Below are positions 5,724 to 63,146 of a stretch of 64,000 nucleotides of DNA, in pieces. The DNA is from a virus. Taxonomy: Duplodnaviria; Caudoviricetes. The stretch spans positions 32,001 to 96,000 of the IMG/VR virus record IMGVR_UViG_3300032038_000018; one strand, 5' to 3'. A program made the translations under genes and the position numbers. The notes under the pieces were generated by a model that saw only the letters and a program-made list of their open reading frames with translations, was not told the origin of the DNA and searched no databases. Every line of letters begins with the position of its first letter. The first letter of the stretch is position 1.

Positions 5724-6572
5724 ATGGCAAACACAAGCAAAATTTCGGAAACAATCAAAAACATCAATGACCGTCTTAACAAGATAGTAGATGGCTTCAA
5801 TTCAGATGATGCAATGGTTGCACTCACACATATATTGAATATATGTGAACCAATCGCATACGATACATCGTTTGTATCGGTATACAAAATTAACGATGCC
5901 GGCATAGAATGTGCGATTAAGATAGTTGATCCCGCTGATGACAAAATTCCATTACTGAAAGAACTGACCGATTATGTCAGCACGTTAAAGGATAACGATT
6001 TTTGGCGTTACGTCAGAACTAAAAAGACTGACGAAGAACCCGCTCCGATTAAATTGGATTCCGATGAAGCAAAAACTTTGGATGCAATGATGGATAGACT
6101 CTCTGACAGAATAAATTCTGTCGACTGCGAAGTCGAAGCCATCAAGGATCATCTTACCGAACTTGGTCTCGGTCTTGATGAGACATGTGATAACTCTATT
6201 GAAGATGACGATGATGGATTTGACTGCAGAGAGGATGTCATTACGATCTATGACAAACTTGAGCACATAGATGATCAAATCATCAATCTTTCTGCAAACG
6301 ATGACAACCTCGAAGTTGATGTCGAAGAACATGGCGAACGACTTGATAGGCTTTCATCCACAATAGAAGAGCTGAGCAATCGACTCACTAGCATTGAGAT
6401 TTTCAATGCACAGCTTTGCGCAACTCTCGTTCAGGACAAGAGATTCAGGAAGAATTTCGACAGAACCGCAAAGAAAATCAGAAAATCTGTAAAGGCAATA
6501 AAGCACGTCGATAATAGCATCAACACTGATAAGCTCGTTCCTGAGAAGGAGATAAAGCCCAGTGAAGAATAA
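5724..6572 (+). CDS. Acidic coiled-coil hypothetical protein
   Basis: GGAGGT RBS before MANT; D/E-rich heptads and basic tail. Confidence 0.65.
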   Translation: MANTSKISETIKNINDRLNKIVDGFNSDDAMVALTHILNICEPIAYDTSFVSVYKINDAGIECAIKIVDPADDKIPLLKELTDYVSTLKDNDFWRYVRTKKTDEEPAPIKLDSDEAKTLDAMMDRLSDRINSVDCEVEAIKDHLTELGLGLDETCDNSIEDDDDGFDCREDVITIYDKLEHIDDQIINLSANDDNLEVDVEEHGERLDRLSSTIEELSNRLTSIEIFNAQLCATLVQDKRFRKNFDRTAKKIRKSVKAIKHVDNSINTDKLVPEKEIKPSEE

Positions 6573-6861
6573 AGACTATAAGAAGTCTATAGAGAAATCT
6601 ATAGATAATTACGGTCAAACTCAATTACTTATAGCCTGTGAAGAAATGGGCGAACTTATACAGGCTATAAGTAAAATGGAAAGAGCTATTAGCTCTAAAG
6701 AAGACCGCAAGAAATGTAAAGAACACATAACAGAAGAAATAGCTGATGTTATGATAGTTCTTGACGAACTTATGTTATACTATAATATAAGTGAGTCAGC
6801 TGTAAAGAAAGTCAAAAATGAGAAAAAGGTGCGCTTGCAAAAGCGCACCAAACATATGTGA
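6562..6861 (+). CDS. MazG-like nucleotide pyrophosphohydrolase
   Basis: EEMGELIQAISK ... EEIADV motifs. Confidence 0.85.
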   Translation: MKNKDYKKSIEKSIDNYGQTQLLIACEEMGELIQAISKMERAISSKEDRKKCKEHITEEIADVMIVLDELMLYYNISESAVKKVKNEKKVRLQKRTKHM

Positions 6862-6879
6862 AAGGAATGGATAATTTTT

Positions 6880-8085
6880 ATGGAATTACAGAAGACACTC
6901 ACCAACACAACACTCAAAATTGGTTATGTTGGCATAGGCAATGCTGGTTCTCAGGTAGGTGTTGAACTCAGCAAGAATGGCATTGAAACCATTCTCATCA
7001 ATACATCTACAAAAGATCTCGATGCTTCTATCATCAAGGAAGACATCAAGTGTTATCTTATTGGCGACTCTAATGAGACAGCTAGAGGTGCTGGGCACTC
7101 TAGAGATAATGCCAAGAAGATATATAACAACTCAACTGATAAGGTTATCAAGGATGGTCAGTTCATTGACTTCATCAATGAAAATGATATAACCGTTATC
7201 GGATGCTCTACAGCTGGTGGTACGGGCTCAGGCATAACGCCTACACTCACTTATCAGCTGAAGAATATATTCCCAAATAAGGTATTCATTATTCTGGGAA
7301 TACTTCCTAGGCTGACAGAATCTCCTAATGCGCACTTTAACACTTCTACATTCGTAGATGAGGTTAACAACCTTTCCAAGAATGGTTGTGAACTCACCTA
7401 CATGATGTATGATCTTGAGAAGTATAAGGATTATGCTTCTGATGATGCTTACAAGAAACTTGCTAAAGAAATATCAAAAGCATTTGGAATTATGCGTGGC
7501 GATATGTCTTATATCTCCAATCATGGCATGGTTGACGAACGCGATATGCTAACCATACTCTCCACACCCGGTCTTATCAATATCTATTATAAGACAGATA
7601 TTGATCTGAATAAAGTTCCCGAAGGTGGAGTACAGAAGATACTCACCGACCAGATAAAAGTATCTCCTTGTGTAACTCAGCAGAAAGATAAACTCGTTAA
7701 GTGGTTTGGTATCTTCCTTCTTCTTCCTGAAGACATTGATGATGATGTAAGAAGGAATGACTTCAGACAACTTGAGACAGCTATAGGTAAACCTTGGGAT
7801 ACATTTGTTAATCATGCTGTTACAGATAAGCCTAAGGGTGAAATAGCTGTAATAGCTTCGGGTATGTCTTTCCCATTTGACAGAATAGATACTTCGCTTG
7901 ATATAGTGAAGACATATACCGATGGCGTTAAGACAAAAACATTTGATATTCATGGCGAACTGGATGGCGCAAAGCTCTTTGCTAAGAATGATTCAGTTAA
8001 CATGATTATGTCTTCTAAGAATAAAGTTTCTGCTGAAGACATTAAGGATGTCACTATCCCTTCATTCCTTGATAGTGATTTCTAA
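6880..8085 (+). CDS. Tubulin/FtsZ-family GTPase (PhuZ/TubZ-like)
   Basis: GIGNAGSQ, INTS, RGAG, AGGTGSG signature loop, VDERDM T7-like loop. Confidence 0.9.
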   Translation: MELQKTLTNTTLKIGYVGIGNAGSQVGVELSKNGIETILINTSTKDLDASIIKEDIKCYLIGDSNETARGAGHSRDNAKKIYNNSTDKVIKDGQFIDFINENDITVIGCSTAGGTGSGITPTLTYQLKNIFPNKVFIILGILPRLTESPNAHFNTSTFVDEVNNLSKNGCELTYMMYDLEKYKDYASDDAYKKLAKEISKAFGIMRGDMSYISNHGMVDERDMLTILSTPGLINIYYKTDIDLNKVPEGGVQKILTDQIKVSPCVTQQKDKLVKWFGIFLLLPEDIDDDVRRNDFRQLETAIGKPWDTFVNHAVTDKPKGEIAVIASGMSFPFDRIDTSLDIVKTYTDGVKTKTFDIHGELDGAKLFAKNDSVNMIMSSKNKVSAEDIKDVTIPSFLDSDF

Positions 8086-8164
8086 TTTTAAATATATATT
8101 GTATTATCAACAGATGTGGTAACAACATCTGTTGATAAATATTTTTTAAATGGAGGTATGGAGC

Positions 8165-9226
8165 ATGTTTTTAGACTTGTATCCGGAAAAGGATAGAGAA
8201 CGACCTTTCTCTATCAATGAAGCCATCGATACTTTCTCAGATATGGATCTCAAGATGTCCAAGAAAGAGAAATATCTCGATAAGCTTTTGTCTTCAAAGA
8301 ACTTCTATGGCTATATATTCATCTGCAAAGATGATGATGGACCGAAGAAAGAAAAACTCAAGAAGTTCTATAAGACGATGACTCACATCGACAATCTCAA
8401 GTGCATTCTCAATACACTTGAGGACTTTAGGATAGATGACTATCCTAGATCTTCTGCTGCATTCATATTTACAGTATGCCAGTATGTTCTGGCTGAATGT
8501 AATGACAGTGCAGCAAAGGTAGATGATGACTACAGAAATGGGGCCATCAGACGTGGCGAGAAAGAAGATCGCTACGATTCGATTGAAGAAAAGTTCGCAT
8601 ATATTAAGAGGATTAATGAATACATCAACGACTTCATTAAGCCTTTTGCGAAGAAGATCTACAGAAAGTCTGGCGTTCCTAAGGACGTTGCGATGACTGT
8701 AATTAAGAACGTTCCCGAGAAGCAGTACATCACCAAGTGGCAGCTTGGTGGATTCATGAATATCATTACCGATGCACTGTATCAGGGTATTGATGATTGT
8801 GAAGAAATTGACAGAATTGATTGGGAACCTTTCTTCGAATCAATAGTTGGTAAGGATCTTCTTAAGGATGTAGCTGTATACCTTACAGTAGAGGGAACTT
8901 CCAGAATTAAGAGAAACTGGAAGAATGCAGCTAGAATTCAGGAAATATGGGACTCTCTGACAACATTCGCATTGGATACTCTTGAAGAATCACCTTCCGA
9001 TGATATCGATCATATGGTCGGTATATATAAGAAGATGGTTGCAGGAATGTCCGGCGATGAGAAGAATGATCTCAGAGTTGATCTGACCAAACTTAAGGAG
9101 GAAGTCTTTCCTAACATTTGCAAGAGTGTTGAAAAGTGTTATAACACTATCAAAGACGCTATTAAGGTAGCAAAGGGAAAGAAAGACAGATTCAAGAGTG
9201 ACGACGAAATCGAAACTCTTAACTAA
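8165..9226 (+). CDS. Hypothetical helical protein
   Basis: Long ORF with GGAGGT RBS; TATATATTGTA at 8093. Confidence 0.7.
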   Translation: MFLDLYPEKDRERPFSINEAIDTFSDMDLKMSKKEKYLDKLLSSKNFYGYIFICKDDDGPKKEKLKKFYKTMTHIDNLKCILNTLEDFRIDDYPRSSAAFIFTVCQYVLAECNDSAAKVDDDYRNGAIRRGEKEDRYDSIEEKFAYIKRINEYINDFIKPFAKKIYRKSGVPKDVAMTVIKNVPEKQYITKWQLGGFMNIITDALYQGIDDCEEIDRIDWEPFFESIVGKDLLKDVAVYLTVEGTSRIKRNWKNAARIQEIWDSLTTFALDTLEESPSDDIDHMVGIYKKMVAGMSGDEKNDLRVDLTKLKEEVFPNICKSVEKCYNTIKDAIKVAKGKKDRFKSDDEIETLN

Positions 9227-9369
9227 GACCATCAACAATGGGAATGATTAAGTTCGTTCCCATTGTTATTTTTTTGCTTAAAATAATAACGATATTAAAC
9301 ACTGATATTAATATATCTGTGGGATCAGATGTTCTCATAGAGTGTGTGACACGTTATGGAGGAAATAAC

Positions 9370-10332
9370 ATGAAAACCTGTAATATTAAAATTATTAATC
9401 CTGTATTTTGGAAAGCCGATGGTACTTCTATCGATTCAGTTTCATATGAGACTTCTGAGTTTGTAGCTAAGGATAATATCAATCTTGTATCCGAAACTAT
9501 CAACACTATTGCCGATAGCAAGAAGAATAAGAAGGTATCATTAGCTAAGTTAATCACAAGAAAAGACGACGATAGCGATATCATTTTATATTCTCATTCA
9601 AATAAATACATTGAGAAATATAGAACCATCAATACTACATTCAATACAGTTAAGGCTGATGCATTTAAAGCTGGCGAGAGTGAAGAGTCTGTCGATAGCG
9701 TATATGTGATTGCTGTCATTCCGTATAATGGCGCATTCACATCTATAATAATTGATAAAGTTGACGAAGGATGCTCAGCTGAGATAATTGCAGCTAAGAC
9801 TGTTTCTGCTGATGCACTTAAGATTAATCTGCAAGATAAAGTTTTATATAGTAAAGTATGTTATCTTATAATAAAGGTAGATCCTGTTAAGGGTACTAAA
9901 GACTATAGCGGCTTTGATATAAACTTCACAACATCATCTTTCAGATGGAATGAAGATCATTCTTCTTGCACAAAGGTTGCAAGAGATATTGTTTTTACCG
10001 TTACCAGCGGCATGATTTCTGATACATCTGCTATGTCATATGATAACATAAAGCCAGATGTTAAGAAAACTAGTATGTTTGCGGTAGAACTTACTAAGGA
10101 TGGAAAGATAGCTGAGCCAGCAGTTAAGTTTAATTCTCTCTTTAAGATCAATATAGACAAGACTGTTAAGAATGGATCAGATTTCATTCCTAAGAAGAAT
10201 TTCAAGAAAAACAACGATGTAGTTAAAAGTTATTTTATGACAAATAAAGACAATAATGCAAACCAGCAGAGTCGCAGGAACAAGCGTTTTGAAGATGCTA
10301 AAAGGCGTTATGCTGAAGACGACTATGAGTAA
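9370..10332 (+). CDS. Hypothetical protein
   Basis: GGAGG RBS precedes ATG 9370; the upstream extension crosses a terminator-like hairpin. Confidence 0.65.
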   Translation: MKTCNIKIINPVFWKADGTSIDSVSYETSEFVAKDNINLVSETINTIADSKKNKKVSLAKLITRKDDDSDIILYSHSNKYIEKYRTINTTFNTVKADAFKAGESEESVDSVYVIAVIPYNGAFTSIIIDKVDEGCSAEIIAAKTVSADALKINLQDKVLYSKVCYLIIKVDPVKGTKDYSGFDINFTTSSFRWNEDHSSCTKVARDIVFTVTSGMISDTSAMSYDNIKPDVKKTSMFAVELTKDGKIAEPAVKFNSLFKINIDKTVKNGSDFIPKKNFKKNNDVVKSYFMTNKDNNANQQSRRNKRFEDAKRRYAEDDYE

Positions 10333-10432
10333 TTAACATAAGCCCTATCTGAAATATGATAGGGTAATTTTTATTCTTTTGATTCAATTGTATATGATAA
10401 TTATGTATTCAACGGATTCGGAGGGTTTAAAA

Positions 10433-10648
10433 TTGAATATTTATATGGTAAAGCGCGGCGAAGAGAAAGTACTCGAAACCGTAAGTTATAGTCATGCATT
10501 ATCAGTATGTGAGAGTATTGATAAAACGCATGGCAATGGATCTGCCACATTGTGGCATATGAATACGGATAAAGATAAGACGTATTCAAGACTTAATCGA
10601 TCTTATGGAACCAGTGTTGGTATTCATGATAATTCAATTTGGAGGTAA
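10433..10648 (+). CDS. Small hypothetical protein
   Basis: GGAGGG RBS at ~10420; abuts the recA-like gene. Confidence 0.5.
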   Translation: MNIYMVKRGEEKVLETVSYSHALSVCESIDKTHGNGSATLWHMNTDKDKTYSRLNRSYGTSVGIHDNSIWR

Positions 10649-10653
10649 ACAGA

Positions 10654-11892
10654 ATGAGTACACCATTACTAAATTCACTTAAATCGGGTAAGCACAAGAA
10701 CTTATTTGAGTCTAACAATGAGTTCGCTGTGTATTCCACAGGTTTTGCTGCAATAGATGCAATCAATGCATTTGCAGTACCCTATAATCTTCCCGATGGT
10801 ACAATTGCTACAGATATAGCAAGAGGTATTATCGGTGGTAGATTTATGACACTCGTAGGAATGGCAGGTACAGGCAAATCTACATTAGCAGATCAGATAG
10901 GATGGAATATAGTGAAAAACTATCCTAATGGTCTTCTTATTCATGCAGATATAGAGGGAACTGTAATAAGACCCAGACTTCTTGAGATACTTGGAATATC
11001 TGCTAGTAGTCCTGATAATGAAAGAATCATTGTTAAGAAAGAGAATGTCTATATAGAAGATATGCTCACTCTTATAGATGATATCTGTGTAACAAAAGAG
11101 CTTCTTGGTGATGAAGCTAAGTATGAGACAGATGGCACTTGGTTTGGTAAAAAGAAGATAAAAGTCTATGAGCCGACGGTGGTAATTGTAGACTCTTTAC
11201 CTGCATTTACTACATCTTCAGTGGATACCACATCTATAGATGGTCAGATGACCACAAATAGAGATGTTGCTATGGTATCTCAGTTCTATACTAAGCTTAT
11301 TTCTAAGATAAGCAAGTACAATATTACTGTGATTGCAACAAATCACATAAAACCTAAAATCGTAATTGATCCATATAATCAGCCGCCATCTCAGCTTATG
11401 TTACTTAGTAAGACTGAGTCATTACCTAGAGGCCAAGCTCCTATATTCTATGCAACGAATATAATCAGACTGTATGCTTCCGGTAAGAGTGCGCTTCTTA
11501 AGAAAGAAGAATATGGATTTGACGGATTTGAAGTTACAGCAGTTGCAGCTAAGTCTAAGACTGCTTTCGTTGGTGCAAGTTGTAAGTTGATATTCAGAGA
11601 AGATAAAGGTTTCGATGAAGCTTATACATTACTTGCTACCGCATATGATAACGATATTGTATGTGGCAGAAATCCTTATCTGTATATGAAAGGTGCAGAG
11701 AATTATAAATTCTCTAAATCGACATTTGGTGAAAAATACAATACAGATGAAGAATTCAGGAAAGCTATATACGATGCAATGGAACCATTTATTCTCGCTA
11801 AGGTATATGAGAGAATAAATAACTTAGAGAAGCTCAAAGATAAGAAAGATGTTAAAATCGATCAAGACGGAAATATAGTAGGTGACGCGTAA
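10654..11892 (+). CDS. RecA/UvsX-like recombinase
   Basis: STGF..ID, Walker A GMAGTGKST, DIEG, Walker B VIVDSL, ATNH, PRGQAPIFYA. Confidence 0.85.
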   Translation: MSTPLLNSLKSGKHKNLFESNNEFAVYSTGFAAIDAINAFAVPYNLPDGTIATDIARGIIGGRFMTLVGMAGTGKSTLADQIGWNIVKNYPNGLLIHADIEGTVIRPRLLEILGISASSPDNERIIVKKENVYIEDMLTLIDDICVTKELLGDEAKYETDGTWFGKKKIKVYEPTVVIVDSLPAFTTSSVDTTSIDGQMTTNRDVAMVSQFYTKLISKISKYNITVIATNHIKPKIVIDPYNQPPSQLMLLSKTESLPRGQAPIFYATNIIRLYASGKSALLKKEEYGFDGFEVTAVAAKSKTAFVGASCKLIFREDKGFDEAYTLLATAYDNDIVCGRNPYLYMKGAENYKFSKSTFGEKYNTDEEFRKAIYDAMEPFILAKVYERINNLEKLKDKKDVKIDQDGNIVGDA

Positions 11893-12086
11893 TGACTGTA
11901 GATATTAATGAATTCGAAGCTAAGAAAGCTCCTGAGATAAAGACTTGTGAGACATGCAAATGTCTCACCTGTCAATCTGGAAAGTTATGCATTTCCAATG
12001 TATCATGCCCGCATGGAGTTAATTGTTCTATGTGTAATGGTAAGAAACCATTGAGTGAATGCACTTATTATAAATCAAGCTTTTAA
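11892..12086 (+). CDS. Small Cys-rich (metal-binding) protein
   Basis: 9 Cys in 64 aa; start overlaps the recA-like stop. Confidence 0.55.
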   Translation: MTVDINEFEAKKAPEIKTCETCKCLTCQSGKLCISNVSCPHGVNCSMCNGKKPLSECTYYKSSF

Positions 12087-12109
12087 TATGTAAGATATGG
12101 AGGTACACA

Positions 12110-14581
12110 ATGCAAAGGGCCGATTTGATAAAGAAGCTAGATACCGAAATAGCTGATATTGGGTATTGTCATTCAATAACTTCAATATCACCCGGAACTG
12201 AATGTAATGCGTCAAGAGCACAGATGCTTGCCAATAACTTGAAGCAGACACAGGTTATGGAAAATCCTGATTTCCCTAGAGTATTCTCTGGTATGGAGAA
12301 CTCTTTTGGTAAATTCTGTAGAGGATATAAACGTATAGAAGGCGATTGGCGAGTTATAAAGAGAATACAGAAATACACTAATGGTAAAATATTCTCAGTC
12401 GTACTCTTCAATGACAAGACAAATACACTAGACATAATAGAGAATCCATTTGCTGAAGATGGACCTGAAAGATTCGGATACAAATATAACTATGACGAAC
12501 TTGATAAACTTCATGATGGAGATGTAGTTAAGGATGGCACTGTAGTTTATAAATCTAATTCATATGATGACCATATGAATTATTGCATGGGCTTCTCTGC
12601 TAGAGTTGCTTACAATACATCTGTATCTACTCTTGAAGATGGTATTATCATTAGAAAGAGTTTCGCTGATAGTAAGTTTACTAATGAAGTAAGTAGCTTT
12701 GTTGTATCTATAAACGACAATGAGATTCCCTTGTTAATTCATGAATATGATGGTGGATTTCATTCAATACCTAAGATAGGTGATCCCGTAAAGGGAACAG
12801 ATCTCGTAGCTATCAAGAAGATCAATAAGAGAAAGATAGCATTTGACTTTACCAACGATGCAGTTACTAAGCCTGATAAAAACTGTGCTATGTATACTGT
12901 AGGTAAGAATAGTGTAATCTATGATATAGATATATACTATAACGATAGCAATGAATTCCCTGATAATTCATTCTATAAAGAGCTCGCTGTATATTACAAA
13001 GAGCAATACAATTACTATTCTCAGATATTTGATATCTGTGAAGAGTTTAAACATAAAGGATGCAATAGAACTTCCAATGCAGATCTTATGCACAAGAAAG
13101 CTAAGGATTTTGTCAATGTGCATGATAGCGATTTCAAATGGAAGAATAAAGAAAGAGCATTCTCATACATCAACATAGTATTTCATTGCATAAAGACATT
13201 ATCACTTCATGAAGGATATAAGATCGTTGGTAGATATGGAGACAAAGGTGTTATATCTGAGAGACGTGATGATGCATCTGAGATACTGACTAAGAGATTT
13301 GATCCTACTAATCCGAGAGATAAAGCTATAGCTAAATATCTTGGTATAGAAGGATCTCCTGAAATGAATATTAGCATTGTACCCGATGCATGTATGTATT
13401 ATGACGAAGATGGCAGATATGTAGATATATGCCAGAATGCAGCAGCTGCATACAGACGCGAGGATACAGGACAGCTTACAGAAGTAGAAATCAATTTCAT
13501 ATCTGAAGAGATAGTCAAAGAGGCTAAGAAGAGATATGAAAAAGATGGATTAGATGCTGCATTTGAACTTCTTATGAGCTATGCTGAGCAATTCCCTGAT
13601 AGTGAAATGAGAGCAATAGCTAAAGAATTCGATTTGGTATATGTCGTATCTAAGAAACTCTGGAAGACTAGTAAGAAAAATAAGCAGAGATTTGTAGAAG
13701 ATATCTTTAGAGATGGATTCTATCTGCAGAAACTTCCTACTGCAGATTGGAGATTCGATAGGATATGCAAACTGTACGATATGTATCCTTTCATTAAGAG
13801 AAAGACAATGTATATCAATAACTTTGGTATAAAGCATAAAGTAGTTAATCCTATGATAGTAGGAGAGAAATACTTCTTTATACTTAAGCAGAACTCTAAT
13901 AAGAATTTCTCTGCTAGAAGTGTATCTAAAGTAAATAAGTTAGGTTTACCATCTAAGAGTGCTGATAAGAAAGAGTCAAGAACTAATATATCAGATACTC
14001 CTATCAACAGAGGTGAGACTTATAACTTACTTGCTGCAGTAGATGCTGCAACACTTATGACAAGCGATATATTCACTAAGAATTCTCCTGTAGCTAGGAA
14101 GGATTTCAAGAATATTATTACATCACCATTGGATCCATTCAAGTATAGACAGATGAAGATTAAGCAGTCTTATACCAATGTGAATGTACTTAATCTTAAA
14201 GCTAGACTTAAGACTATGGGTATCGGGTTTGATATCATAACTAATAAGTCTCTGGGTCTTGCTATAATAGATCAGTATAAGACGTTTATGAAGTTTAATG
14301 AGATAACTTTCTTTGATTATGGTTATAATAGAAAGTATTATGCTTTCATTATCAATAACTATAATAAGCTCAAAGATCCTAAGAAATCGTTTGATGATAC
14401 TTGGGAAGAGCTTATATCAATGGAAGAATTTAAACTTCTGGAAATTGATGACGAAATAGTAAAGACTGCACATGACATTATGGAAAAGTATTATTACGTG
14501 GAGCCATCTGCTGCAGATGCACTTATTGAAGATGATATCCACGAGATAATAACAGTCGACAATATTCCCGATAAAGACTAA
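12110..14581 (+). CDS. RNA polymerase beta subunit, C-terminal part (probably non-virion RNAP)
   Basis: ASRAQMLANNLKQ, LEDGIII, GYKIVGRYGDKGVIS, VGEKYFFILKQ..FSARS. Confidence 0.9.
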   Translation: MQRADLIKKLDTEIADIGYCHSITSISPGTECNASRAQMLANNLKQTQVMENPDFPRVFSGMENSFGKFCRGYKRIEGDWRVIKRIQKYTNGKIFSVVLFNDKTNTLDIIENPFAEDGPERFGYKYNYDELDKLHDGDVVKDGTVVYKSNSYDDHMNYCMGFSARVAYNTSVSTLEDGIIIRKSFADSKFTNEVSSFVVSINDNEIPLLIHEYDGGFHSIPKIGDPVKGTDLVAIKKINKRKIAFDFTNDAVTKPDKNCAMYTVGKNSVIYDIDIYYNDSNEFPDNSFYKELAVYYKEQYNYYSQIFDICEEFKHKGCNRTSNADLMHKKAKDFVNVHDSDFKWKNKERAFSYINIVFHCIKTLSLHEGYKIVGRYGDKGVISERRDDASEILTKRFDPTNPRDKAIAKYLGIEGSPEMNISIVPDACMYYDEDGRYVDICQNAAAAYRREDTGQLTEVEINFISEEIVKEAKKRYEKDGLDAAFELLMSYAEQFPDSEMRAIAKEFDLVYVVSKKLWKTSKKNKQRFVEDIFRDGFYLQKLPTADWRFDRICKLYDMYPFIKRKTMYINNFGIKHKVVNPMIVGEKYFFILKQNSNKNFSARSVSKVNKLGLPSKSADKKESRTNISDTPINRGETYNLLAAVDAATLMTSDIFTKNSPVARKDFKNIITSPLDPFKYRQMKIKQSYTNVNVLNLKARLKTMGIGFDIITNKSLGLAIIDQYKTFMKFNEITFFDYGYNRKYYAFIINNYNKLKDPKKSFDDTWEELISMEEFKLLEIDDEIVKTAHDIMEKYYYVEPSAADALIEDDIHEIITVDNIPDKD

Positions 14582-59111: not shown

Positions 59112-59332
59112 AGAAAACTCTACCCCCTCTCCCTCTGCGCACGTGGTCGGTTAAGACCACGTGCGCATTCACCCTCTCCCCCTGTAAAGATGATTTAGGA
59201 AGCCCGAGCCGAGCACACGAAAGCCGCACGAGCGGCGAGGCTCCAGCCCGCGAACGAAAGGGTAGAGTTCGCATGAGAACAAAACGAGCCAGCGAAGCCG
59301 CCGGTGAGCAAGTAGCCAAACAACAGCACCTC
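59112..59332 (-). repeat. DGR-like variable region plus downstream conserved cis element, copy A
   Basis: GC-rich 221-bp gapless repeat of 61159-61379 (offset 2047 bp); hairpin at 59136-59167. Confidence 0.85.
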
Positions 59333-61096
59333 ATAAAGTCCACTCGTTTGGTCTCCACGATAGTAAACCGCGTCGCATAATCCCGTAGTTGCACTTCCAC
59401 CATCACAGTCTATGGTATAACCACCATTATTTAAATCATAATGTATATCTTTACCATGTTTCCAAGTAACGCCTGCCGTAGTATGAGTGAGATATCCTAT
59501 ATCAGTATAATCACTTGATATTGTAGCTGTAGTTTTAGTAACTGCCTTTAAGTCATTTTGTATTAATACATGTGCATTTGTATTACTATCATAACTATAC
59601 ACTGCATTGCCACATACTTCAAGTGTACCTGAAAAAAGTTCTATGCCACTCATTACACTTGGGAATCTGCTATTAACAGCAAAATTACCAACTTCATAAG
59701 TACCGTCTTTGCCAAGTATATCAAGAGAATATCCGGTTTTATATATAGAAGTTTGTACACTACAAGTTGTATCTACTGTAACATTGCTATCTATGTATAC
59801 AAGACTATATGTAGTCTCACCACTAGCACTATATCCTATAACATTACTATTGCCATCATATGCATATAGCGTATAAGTAGAGCCAGTAATATCCAATACA
59901 AGATTTATGTCAACATCGCTAGTTTCAGATGTATTAGGATCTGTATATGTAAATTGTATACTAATATTATTATCATCTAAATCTACTGCATTACCAGTAT
60001 TAGATATCTTCTTGCACAATATATCAAAATCTGTACTACTAGATATACTATAATCTGTATTAGATATGGTAAATCCAGTCTTTACATTCTTAAATAATAC
60101 GATATCATTAGATTTATTTGTAATAGTTGCATTGGAAGCTATATTCATGGATCTTTGATATTGTCTATCAGACTCTGGATTACCTATATCGATTCTAGTA
60201 TCTACATATAATTTATTTGCATCTGTAGTTGTAAGCACTACATAATTCTTATTAGTAGTGGCAGTCTGTATATACAGTCTATTATAATAATAAGAAATTA
60301 ATCCATTCAAATTATTTGCAAAGTTTGTATGGCCGTATTTCATCATGAATATACGCTGTATCATAGCAGCCTGACCCATTGTTATAGATGTCATGTTTTC
60401 ATTTCTAGCATGATACTTATCTACACATGTATTATACGAGGGACCGGTTACTGTGGTAAATGCTTGATGCACCCACGGATATTCACCAGCACTACTATAA
60501 GGAGCGCCATCTATCCATACAGATGGGAATTTAGTTATTGTATAAAATCCCTGGTCTTTACCATTTATATCTTTGCATAAATTATTTAACGTAAATCCGT
60601 CTCTGGGAGTATCTGTCCACTCTATGCACAAATAGTCTGTTCCATTTACGGTTTCTTTATATACCCTCTCATATACTGAAGCGAATAAGCATACTACGTC
60701 TACTTTGCCATAGTAACTAAATCCGGGTTCACCAACTATTGCATCTATTACTATATTGCCATCATCGCCATAGTGTACATTAGCATCTATAGATCTAAAT
60801 ACATTTATATTGGCATAATCATCTCTGCCAGCTACAGTACGTGTAGAAGGTTCTACTACTAAACCTTCATTAGCACCATATTTAGTACCGGCGGGGACGA
60901 TTACTCCAGCACTAGTGTAAGCGAATTTTACTCCATATATTTTTTCGTCTCTATTTGCTGCAAAATATAATTTCAGAAATTCAGATTTATTTTTAAATGG
61001 TAATTTATTTATTTTATTTAATTCTCTCTGTTTAGCTTTATCATTATAATATGATAATAAAGATGAATTAATTAGAGATTTATATTCATTTGCCAT
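59195..61096 (-). CDS. Putative receptor-binding protein with C-type-lectin-like variable C-terminus (DGR target A)
   Basis: Paralogue of 61242-63146; ends LLFG.L..GG.AG.F...AN..LS.A.W..AAR. Confidence 0.8.
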   Translation of the reverse strand: MANEYKSLINSSLLSYYNDKAKQRELNKINKLPFKNKSEFLKLYFAANRDEKIYGVKFAYTSAGVIVPAGTKYGANEGLVVEPSTRTVAGRDDYANINVFRSIDANVHYGDDGNIVIDAIVGEPGFSYYGKVDVVCLFASVYERVYKETVNGTDYLCIEWTDTPRDGFTLNNLCKDINGKDQGFYTITKFPSVWIDGAPYSSAGEYPWVHQAFTTVTGPSYNTCVDKYHARNENMTSITMGQAAMIQRIFMMKYGHTNFANNLNGLISYYYNRLYIQTATTNKNYVVLTTTDANKLYVDTRIDIGNPESDRQYQRSMNIASNATITNKSNDIVLFKNVKTGFTISNTDYSISSSTDFDILCKKISNTGNAVDLDDNNISIQFTYTDPNTSETSDVDINLVLDITGSTYTLYAYDGNSNVIGYSASGETTYSLVYIDSNVTVDTTCSVQTSIYKTGYSLDILGKDGTYEVGNFAVNSRFPSVMSGIELFSGTLEVCGNAVYSYDSNTNAHVLIQNDLKAVTKTTATISSDYTDIGYLTHTTAGVTWKHGKDIHYDLNNGGYTIDCDGGSATTGLCDAVYYRGDQTSGLYEVLLFGYLLTGGFAGSFCSHANSTLSFAGWSLAARAAFVCSARAS

Positions 61097-61158
61097 TATA
61101 AAACACCTCAATGAGAAATATATTTCAAGAAAGAGGTGGAGTGTTTATTTTCAGATTC

Positions 61159-61379
61159 AGAAAACTCTACCCCCTCTCCCTCTGCGCATGTGGGCTCAAC
61201 CGCCCACATGCGCATTCACCCTCTCCCCCTGTAAAGATGATTTAGGAAGCCCGAGCCGAGCAAACGAAAGCCGCGCGAGCGGCGAAGTACCAGGCCGCGG
61301 TCGAAAGGGCAATGTTCGCAAGAGAACAAAACGGGCCAGCGGTGCCGCCGGTGCCCAAGGAGCCAAACAACAGCACCTC
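61159..61379 (-). repeat. DGR-like variable region plus downstream conserved cis element, copy B
   Basis: Repeat of 59112-59332; hairpin at 61183-61214. Confidence 0.85.
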
Positions 61380-63146
61380 GTAGAAACCTGATTTCTGATC
61401 TCCAAGATAGTAAACACCATCACAGAACCCTGTAGTTGTAGATGCACCATCACAGTTATATAATAGACCACCTAATGCTAAGTTATAATGCACGTCTCTT
61501 ACATACTTCCAACTAGTTCCACTCGTAGTATGACTATGATATCCTGTATCTGTGTATTCTGCTGTGATTGTATTCGTGGTTTTAGTGATTGCTCTTAAAT
61601 CATTTTGTAATAAGATATGAACCATAGTGTTACTATCATAATTATAAACTGCATTACCACATACTTCGTTTGTGCCACACATCAGTTCTATGCCACTTAT
61701 TACACTAGGATTCCTCAAACTTGTATTAAATGCTCCGTTAATATAAGAACCATCTTTACCAAGTATTCCGAGAGAATATCCTGTATTATAACACGCACTG
61801 GTCTGAACACTGCATGTTGTATCTGCAGTTATCGGTCTGTCAAAGTATACTGCAGTATAAGTAGTTTCTCCACTAGCACTATATCCTATTACATTATTAC
61901 TGCCATCATATGCATATAGAGTATAAACTCCACCAGTTATGTCAAGTACTAAGTTTATATCTACTGTACTTTCTTCAGATGTATTGGGATCGGTATATAT
62001 AAACTGCATTGTGTTATTATCGTCATCTAAATCTACAGCATCTCCAGTAGATGCTAGTTTCTTACATAAGATATCAAATTCAGATTCACTAGCTATGGTA
62101 TAATTAGTATCGGATATAGTAAATCCAGCTTTTACATTTTTAAATAAAACTATATCATTAGTTTTACCGGTCACATACAAATTTTGGGCTACACTGAATT
62201 GTCTATACGATTGTCTAGCAGACGTCGGATCACCAACATCTATCTGTGTATCAGCATATAACTTATTGGCATCTGTAGTAGTAAGCACTACATAATTTTT
62301 ATTTGTAACAGCAGTCTGTAAATACAGCAATACTTGATAATACGAGGATAGACCATTCAATTTCGTTTGATAGTTTGTATGGCCATATTTCATCATAAAT
62401 ATACGTTGTATCGTAGCTAACTGACCAATAGTCATAGCAGACATATTTTCATTTCTAGCATGATATCTGTCAACACAGTTGTTATATGACGGACCAGCTA
62501 CTCCAGATATATGACCATTTACCCATGGATATCTACCAGCACTACTATAAGGAGCTCCATCTATCCATACAGATGGGAATTTAGTTATTGTATAAAATCC
62601 TTGATTTTTTCCATCTATTCCTTTACATAATATATTTAATGTAAACCCATCTCTGGGAGTATCAGTCCATTCTATACATAGCCACTCTACGCCAGATACC
62701 GTTTCAGTATATATTTTCTCATATACAGGAGCAAATAAGCATACTACGTCTACTTTACCATAATAGCTAAAACCATCTTCACCTTCTAAATAATCTATTA
62801 CAATACTTCCATCTGATCCATAGTGTACATTAGCATCTATAGATCTAAATACATTTATATTGGCATAATCATCTCTACCGGCTACAGTTCTAGTAGATGG
62901 TTCTACAACTAGCCCATTATTAGCACCATACTTAACTCCACCACTAGCTTGGATTACGCCATTAGCATCTTTGGGGAATTTAACCCCATATATTTTTCCG
63001 TCTCTATTCATCAGAAACATTTTGGCTAATTGCTCTGATTTGTCTTTTATATATTGACTCTTTATTAAGTCATCTTCTCTATCTGACTTATTGGAATCGT
63101 ATCTTTCCAATAAGTCAGTATTTATTAATTTACTATAGTCTGGCAT
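61242..63146 (-). CDS. Putative receptor-binding protein with C-type-lectin-like variable C-terminus (DGR target B)
   Basis: Paralogue of target A over its full length; GAGGT RBS. Confidence 0.8.
   Translation of the reverse strand: MPDYSKLINTDLLERYDSNKSDREDDLIKSQYIKDKSEQLAKMFLMNRDGKIYGVKFPKDANGVIQASGGVKYGANNGLVVEPSTRTVAGRDDYANINVFRSIDANVHYGSDGSIVIDYLEGEDGFSYYGKVDVVCLFAPVYEKIYTETVSGVEWLCIEWTDTPRDGFTLNILCKGIDGKNQGFYTITKFPSVWIDGAPYSSAGRYPWVNGHISGVAGPSYNNCVDRYHARNENMSAMTIGQLATIQRIFMMKYGHTNYQTKLNGLSSYYQVLLYLQTAVTNKNYVVLTTTDANKLYADTQIDVGDPTSARQSYRQFSVAQNLYVTGKTNDIVLFKNVKAGFTISDTNYTIASESEFDILCKKLASTGDAVDLDDDNNTMQFIYTDPNTSEESTVDINLVLDITGGVYTLYAYDGSNNVIGYSASGETTYTAVYFDRPITADTTCSVQTSACYNTGYSLGILGKDGSYINGAFNTSLRNPSVISGIELMCGTNEVCGNAVYNYDSNTMVHILLQNDLRAITKTTNTITAEYTDTGYHSHTTSGTSWKYVRDVHYNLALGGLLYNCDGASTTTGFCDGVYYLGDQKSGFYEVLLFGSLGTGGTAGPFCSLANIALSTAAWYFAARAAFVCSARAS

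Follow-up and report, generated by a model that had tools for sequence, protein, structure and literature searches.

A three-target diversity-generating retroelement, now probably without its reverse transcriptase, in a phage of about 236 kb

Introduction

Two tandem paralogous genes, geneA and geneB, in a 64,000-nt stretch of phage DNA (hereafter the window; bases 32001-96000 of the 128,376-bp virus record IMGVR_UViG_3300032038_000018, which CheckV rates as 52% complete) end in short, GC-rich segments that differ from each other in an unusual way. This raises the question of whether these ends are the variable regions (VRs) of a diversity-generating retroelement (DGR) and, if so, where the template repeat (TR) and the reverse transcriptase (RT) that wrote them are to be found. 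No natural machinery for the targeted hypermutation of proteins is known to us other than DGRs, which occur commonly in gut phages. From the analyses described below we consider it likely that this ~236-kb phage carries a DGR with three targets, that the cassette of this DGR is now RT-less, and that the VRs were written by an intact template of the type present in a related contig, L010, and are now either frozen or changeable only in trans. Positions are those of the window, except where they are preceded by "genome", which denotes the 128-kb record.

Results

Codon differences at the ends of geneA and geneB

The two genes and their VRs are as follows.

59195..61111, minus strand: geneA, DGR target gene in the tail module; 638 aa with a TTG start, 633 aa according to the gene callers
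61242..63146, minus strand: geneB, DGR target gene, tandem paralogue of geneA; 634 aa, 69% amino acid identity to geneA
59198..59330, minus strand: VR3, the VR of geneA; 133 nt homologous to the TR, adenine-templated sites at ~59239-59314
61245..61377, minus strand: VR2, the VR of geneB; adenine-templated sites at ~61286-61361

The tails of geneA and geneB can be aligned without a gap across the final 45 codons, and their near-identity continues for ~85 nt beyond the stop codon. In the last 44–45 codons of both genes, A accounts for 5.9% of the bases and G+C for 62–64%; in the gene bodies, the values are 35–36% and 32–34%, respectively. Thirteen of the 45 codons differ between geneA and geneB (TAC/TCC, CTC/GGC, TTC/ACC, TCG/CCG, CAT/CTT, TCT/ATT, ACC/GCC, TTC/ACC, GGC/GCC, AGC/TAC, CTC/TTC, CGT/CGC and GTG/GTT), 11 of them at positions 1–2 alone and two at position 3 alone. 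When the bodies were aligned, 322 of 587 codons differed, 70 (22%) being limited to positions 1–2 and 141 to position 3 alone, and VR and body were clearly distinct in the share of codon differences confined to positions 1–2 (Fisher p = 4.8e-6). The composition, the gap-free alignment of the two paralogous ends and the exact list of differing codons had been reported in a first-pass annotation made from the letters of the window alone, and all were reproduced when recomputed. That annotation had also noticed neither a TR nor an RT within the window, and our search of the window agrees.

An intact template in a related contig

A TR-specific pattern scan recovered L010, a metagenome contig of 3,748 bp, in which the end of a first target gene is followed by a hairpin block, an intact TR (551-683) and a 396-aa open reading frame (ORF). 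The 3′ end of this TR is identical to the VR as far as the stop codon. The ORF matches RVT_1 (E 1.6e-12) and has the motifs YMDD and IGSYLSQ, the latter conforming to the motif (I/V/L)GxxxSQ by which DGR RTs are marked (PMC3521204). Its best real match in the PDB is a 328-aa "Reverse transcriptase", 8ub7 (E 6.9e-10). We take 8ub7 to be the bRT of phage BPP-1.

We compared four VRs with the L010 TR, counting changes separately at its 21 adenines and at its 111 other positions.

L010 own VR: 13/21 adenine sites changed, 0/111 other sites
geneB, VR2: 14/21 adenine sites changed, 2/111 other sites (p = 4.5e-12)
geneA, VR3: 15/21 adenine sites changed, 6/111 other sites (p = 1e-10)
third target (see below), VR1: 15/21 adenine sites changed, 5/111 other sites

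Across seven VRs from five loci, 20 of the 21 adenine columns were variable against 12 of the 111 other columns, and the bases that replaced adenine were about evenly spread (T:C:G = 34:31:30). To judge from these alignments, the pattern is the signature of adenine-specific mutagenic retrohoming, and the ends of geneA and geneB are VRs of a DGR, both genes being real DGR targets. The same footprint had been read from the codon differences alone in the first-pass annotation; the VRs of the window do differ from the L010 TR almost only at adenines, and the intact L010 TR contains, in the predicted order, every segment of the template that had been reconstructed there.

A quite different origin of the two ends, by gene conversion among the paralogues together with positive selection on binding residues and without any retrohoming, would fit with tails and downstream 85 nt that are far more alike than the gene bodies. 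It gives no account of variable sites that coincide with the adenines of a non-coding template copy in the proportions given above, of the near-equal shares that T, C and G have at these sites, or of the DGR-type RT that stands beside the template in relatives. We regard this origin as extremely improbable.

A third target and a resident template repeat

The VR sequence is present in four copies in the 128-kb record, namely VR1, a TR-like copy, VR2 and VR3. The two copies outside the window belong to the following features.

genome 2549-4462, plus strand: third target gene, encoding a 637-aa paralogue; 29.5 kb before the window
genome 4327-4459, plus strand: VR1, the VR of the third target, from the VR-sequence search of the record
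from genome 4651, plus strand: resident TR, a non-coding copy 190 bp past the stop codon of the third target and 27.3 kb before the window

Where two target genes had been proposed, there are thus three, the third being outside the window in the same record. It adjoins one or more helicase genes at 87 kb from geneA and geneB, and the resident copy lies 86–88 kb from VR2 and VR3, on the opposite strand. At each codon that differs among the three VRs, this non-coding copy reads AAC or AAT, and it is therefore a template repeat. The remote template that the first-pass annotation had predicted is accordingly at hand, as a TR-like copy with A at most of the variable sites; the RT that had been expected beside such a copy was not found in the 128 kb.

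We observed that the resident TR has drifted. Compared with the intact TR of L010, it has lost 3 of the 21 adenines and has three other bases altered, and beyond position 92 it diverges completely from the VRs. Its differences from the VRs of its own genome are still significantly biased to adenine sites, and some of its non-adenine mismatches are common to all three of them; its bases T43, G55 and C80 occur in none of the three. Because it shows 17–23 non-adenine mismatches to every VR compared (20–23 to those of its own genome) against 0–7 for the intact TR, we conclude that the resident TR, with its drift and its different 3′ end, was not the source of the present VRs. Their sequences point to a writer TR that has C at positions 37 and 118, and no such TR occurred in any locus examined. 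The 3′ end of the resident TR reads as a C-terminus of the target family ("SRPAF", as seen in other members and lineages). We had considered this 3′ part as a classical diverged copy of the homing site and dropped the idea, since it lies past the end of homology to the RT-containing cassette.

Homing signals downstream of the variable regions

Just after the stop codons of geneA and geneB we found the following elements.

59112..59194, minus strand: post-VR element of geneA; perfect 13-bp hairpin at 59136-59167, DNA fold -17.6 kcal/mol, z = -5.0
61159..61241, minus strand: post-VR element of geneB; hairpin at 61183-61214, DNA fold -18.1 kcal/mol, z = -6.1

A stem of 13 bp and a loop of 6 nt make up the hairpin, which is set between mirror-image G/A tracts. 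Relative to the geneA copy, the geneB hairpin has compensatory changes on both sides of the stem at two base pairs, and its loop is flipped. Hairpins follow all three VRs (z -5 to -7), lying 30 nt after the first base of the stop codon; none was found after the TR. The 40-nt GC-rich 3′ end of the VR is likewise near-identical among the three VRs of this genome and the four VRs of relatives that were compared. In BPP-1, a DNA hairpin or cruciform just after the VR serves as a target-site signal (PMC3240598), and by analogy the post-VR hairpin described here is probably a DNA hairpin or cruciform that marks the homing target.

Fold of the C-terminal domain

The last 180 aa of the target protein were modelled from 75 sequences with a pLDDT of 86 (52.8 in an earlier model from 25 sequences). 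We compared the model with 48,161 PDB chains, and the top three matches were all DGR variable proteins.

TaqVP, 5vf4: Z 5.4, rmsd 5.1, 135 aligned residues, 16% identity
Nanoarchaeota variable protein, 5ioo, described as a C-type lectin fold: Z 3.2, rmsd 4.4, 102 aligned residues
Mtd, 1yu0: Z 2.6, rmsd 2.4, 53 aligned residues

More than 10 C-type lectin domains rank next after these, and the sequence profile matches the VR end of 5vf4 (residues 348-383, E 0.0046). The placement of the VR residues in a C-terminal C-type-lectin-like domain is thus moderately supported by the model, as is the C-type lectin fold that had been predicted in the first-pass annotation. The module formed by the last 180 aa recurs as the C-terminal part of proteins of various lengths (217 representatives at E <= 0.001), a few of which are collagen-repeat proteins, and it corresponds to no Pfam family.

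Replacement of the RT part of the cassette

We looked for an RT in the 128-kb record in three ways. The RVT_1 profile found no match, a scan for YxDD found no site with an RT-like context, and the best tblastn match to the L010 RT had an E of 1.2. Alignment with L010 indicates where the RT would be expected: L010 1-641 aligns to genome 4127-4741 and L010 2178-3730 to genome 4834-6400, so that ~1.5 kb of the RT-containing cassette (the VR-identical 3′ end of the TR, the spacer and the RT gene) is replaced here by ~90 bp, which end in a terminator-like hairpin. There is no ORF between the third target and the TR. The ORFs 3′ of the resident TR have no match in Pfam or PHROG, and the 134/155-aa ORF after the RT site has none in Pfam, nor any to PF05635, presumably the Avd family, even at E <= 10.

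The ~75–110 nt upstream of the TR (L007:4575-4650 and L010:475-550) are one base apart between the RT-containing and the RT-less lineages, which elsewhere are 70–88% identical, and they hold a small hairpin, CAGAATAT...ATATTCTG. To go by its conservation, this stretch is probably a promoter or a structured leader of the template RNA, kept in the RT-less genome.

L009, a contig of 7.5 kb with 97.7% identity to this genome, has the same RT-less layout, as does an ENA contig of 119,954 bp. We rejected an assembly artefact as its source, as three independent assemblies agree and the junction is identical in this genome and in L009. At the site that is empty here, a 39.7-kb contig whose first-target protein shows 94.5% identity carries an RVT_1 gene of 390 aa, and L014 has the same RT followed by the same downstream genes. 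In every RT-containing relative examined, the RT comes directly after the TR at this site. L016 represents a more distant lineage, its first target showing 62% identity. No TR and no RT stand between its target gene and the homologue of the 134-aa ORF (8861-9127); the target gene has a GC-rich, VR-like end and a hairpin of a different kind. As far as these loci can tell, one clade spans RT-containing forms, TR-only forms and, in L016, a form without both at the site.

All three target proteins occur, identical, on one contig of 236,423 bp, for which a listing of homologues of the L010 RT, an indirect test, gave none. This is indirect evidence that a near-complete genome also is without an RT. 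Because the RT site beside the TR is empty and no RT is found in 128 kb, we describe the cassette, on its sequence, as an RT-less derivative of a DGR and the genes of the window as DGR targets.

Could the genome nevertheless have a complete and autonomous DGR? An RT, with or without a second intact TR, would then reside in the ~108 kb outside the record, and the copy at genome 4651 would be a spare, or else a TR that works with a diverged 3′ end. The incompleteness of the record leaves room for this, the C at positions 37 and 118 of the implied writer is unmatched so far, and the 3′ end of the resident TR, reading "SRPAF" like that of other family members, is no random scar. VR1 also differs at adenine sites between two genomes without an RT at the usual site (see below). 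Against this stand the site itself, which holds the RT right after the TR in all the RT-containing relatives examined and is empty here, the 236-kb contig, which has three identical targets and is listed for no homologue of the L010 RT, and the resident TR, whose T43, G55 and C80 are absent from the resident VRs. On balance, an autonomous DGR appears distinctly improbable to us.

Variation among strains

We compared VR1 of this genome with that of L009 and found differences at 10 of the 21 adenine sites and at 3 of the 111 others (p = 2.5e-7), while the flanks differ by 1–2%. Members of 90%-identity clusters show 7–12 differences in the final 45 residues. P0006 is 100% identical to geneA; P0053, a variant of geneA, differs at 12 of the last 45 residues against 16 of the 588 others (~97% identity outside the VR). 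Relative to the intact TR, the VR of geneB has no private non-adenine change and that of geneA has four. Given the adenine-site differences in VR1 between close strains, the cluster variant of geneA and the VR of geneB without a private non-adenine change, we infer that the element was active very recently in this phage species. For this genome, what the data show is past diversification and variation between strains rather than ongoing activity.

The VR of P0053 is nearly template-like, with Asn at most of the AAY codons. It looks like the product of a homing event with little mutagenesis, or of a very recent one.

Recent change in RT-less genomes could also have been made from outside. The phage would then be RT-less, as proposed above, and its VRs would be diversified in trans, the RT and template RNA of co-infecting RT-containing kin homing into the conserved VR 3′ ends and hairpins. 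In BPP-1, avd, TR and brt supplied from a plasmid do function in trans (PMC5758913). RT-containing and RT-less variants both exist among strains whose VR1 proteins share at least 94% identity, the three VRs all retain intact 3′ ends and hairpins, VR1 differs at adenine sites between two RT-less genomes, and the VR of geneB is free of private non-adenine changes, as if recently written. The VR of geneA, with its four such changes, looks as if it had not been rewritten for a while; transfer of the RT-less cassette or of VR alleles between strains by homologous recombination could yield the same pattern; and the co-occurrence of RT-containing and RT-less forms in one sample is without support. 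We hold diversification in trans to be possible, though unlikely. A related and rather doubtful idea is that RT-less genomes are "free riders": with their three homing sites intact, they would see their receptor-binding genes rewritten through the RT and template RNA of co-infecting RT-containing kin, the retroelement being a shared good within the phage population.

Proposed history of the element

The steps of the history that we favour rest on the pattern in the sequences and on what has been published about other DGRs. The geneA, geneB and third target genes would be three paralogous targets of one DGR. In each of them, the last 44 codons would have been overwritten by cDNA from the TR, with random bases opposite the template adenines, and the GC-rich 3′ end and the downstream hairpin would mark the gene as a homing site. 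In the RT-containing relatives, the order is target, hairpin, TR, spacer and DGR-type RT. Loss of the TR 3′ end, spacer and RT (~1.5 kb to ~90 bp), together with drift of the resident TR, would then have given the RT-less derivative, its three VRs having been written by an intact TR of the L010 type. At present, these VRs would be frozen, or could be altered only if an RT and template RNA were provided in trans.

Several observations weigh against this history. The record is 52% complete, and an RT in the remaining 48% was tested for only indirectly, by a search for homologues of the L010 RT that would miss an RT unrelated to it. The structural similarity is modest at Z 5.4, and a Foldseek search of the PDB yielded nothing below E = 2.8. 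Two RT-less genomes, this one and L009, differ in VR1 mainly at adenine sites; if the RT was lost before they split, something has diversified VR1 since. Moreover, VR1 of L009 shares four to five bases with the adjacent drifted TR (T16, T43 and TC at 83-84, plus T37, which is also in the intact TR of L010). In sequence terms this hints at a flow of information from that TR, of which a frozen relic gives no account. Candidate causes of the adenine-site difference between the RT-less genomes are supply in trans by RT-containing kin, recombination of cassette or VR alleles, and an RT outside the record.

Discussion

Comparison with known systems

The element shares several features with the DGR of BPP-1 (mtd, TR, brt and avd). 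The differences between TR and VR are adenine-specific in both, the VR is the C-terminal end of a tail protein with a C-type lectin fold (here a modelled one), a GC-rich 3′ end and a DNA hairpin just after the VR are present as in BPP-1 (PMC3240598), and the RT of the relatives has YMDD and (I/V/L)GxxxSQ. It differs from BPP-1 in having three targets instead of one, two of which are 86–88 kb from the TR on the other strand, and in that no Avd gene of recognisable sequence was detected here. The intact TR of the relatives is also, unlike that of BPP-1, VR-identical up to the stop codon, with only the downstream hairpin block separating VR from TR; the hairpin is of another make (13-bp stem, 6-nt loop, mirror G/A tracts); and in this genome the RT, the spacer and the TR 3′ end are gone.

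Like the DGR of Treponema denticola and other multi-target DGRs, this one has one TR and several paralogous targets, some of them far from the position of the RT. A survey reported multiple targets in 13% of DGRs and found that non-adjacent targets of phage-associated DGRs are nearly always within 50 kb of the RT (<=50 kb), distances above 100 kb (>100 kb) being almost all cellular (PMC5758913). Unlike in these surveyed phage DGRs, the targets described here are spread over 86–88 kb in one phage genome, a spread that is possible only because the genome is very large. The best structural matches of the target domain, TaqVP (5vf4), the Nanoarchaeota variable protein (5ioo) and Mtd (1yu0), have the C-type lectin fold as well, at low similarity.

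RT-less elements are already on record as a class: in the MGV catalogue, TR–VR pairs without an RT gene occur in 6.5% of 53,630 high-quality genomes, where they were counted and not dissected (PMC8241571). In the present case, unlike in those pairs, the loss of the RT is resolved to its boundaries against RT-containing kin, and the resident TR is shown not to have written the VRs. Systems of this kind are well known; what this case adds, and what makes it moderately interesting in our view, is the presence of three targets over 88 kb of a ~236-kb phage and a target domain that is outside Pfam yet widespread. The series of RT-containing, TR-only and neither-bearing forms in one clade, with precise boundaries, shows how a DGR is lost. 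The adenine-site differences between VRs of RT-less genomes are a puzzle, and if it is true that the RT of kin acts in trans, DGR function would be a population-level trait. Surveys anchored on the RT would miss the three hypervariable tail genes of this genome.

Neighbouring genes and related loci

The neighbours of geneA encode a tail sheath, a virion structural protein and an acetyltransferase, and in the loci of relatives tail tube and tail C-terminal domains are close by. The N-terminal body of geneA matches phrog_17147, the VR being borne on a C-terminal domain of ~180 aa, and the C-terminus of geneB matches phrog_5302, "tail protein". Pfam gave no match for the target genes. Pattern scans of the viral contig collection with VR and TR cores and a related-locus search with geneB also found none, and the named-phage collection gave only three distant matches, at 26–30% identity.

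In L008, a relative of 234,195 bp, three tandem paralogues were seen at 8149-14011. The C-terminus of the first is AT-rich and not variable, the ends of the second and third are rich in GC and resemble VRs, and a 48-nt copy of the VR/TR 3′ end with a terminator hairpin lies between the second and third (12012-12059). Neither a TR nor an RT was found in this 22-kb locus.

In the genome under study, VR1 and the VR of geneA are inverted repeats of ~210 bp, 87 kb apart. L015, an ENA contig of 129,961 bp, has at 5960-13525 a VR1-type target with the helicase upstream (91% nucleotide identity to genome 2506-4489), followed directly by the gene set found downstream of geneA: a 106-aa ORF, an acetyltransferase, a 255-aa protein, a 916-aa sheath and a tail tube. 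From its gene order, this arrangement would represent a genuine inversion isomer of the genome, or else a chimera that the assembly made across the repeat.

Two ORFs after the cassette, of 106 and 104 aa (L007:5326-5646 and L007:5664-5978), are tandem paralogues by reciprocal blastn cross-matches and have no family match. A few genes after the cassette there are also a 538-aa ORF (genome 8328-9944, outside the window) and a 351-aa ORF, whose homologues in related contigs carry PF27846 (tSAM_targ_Cxxx_rpt). We take this name to suggest a Cys-repeat substrate of a radical SAM enzyme, which would be an unusual cargo for a phage.

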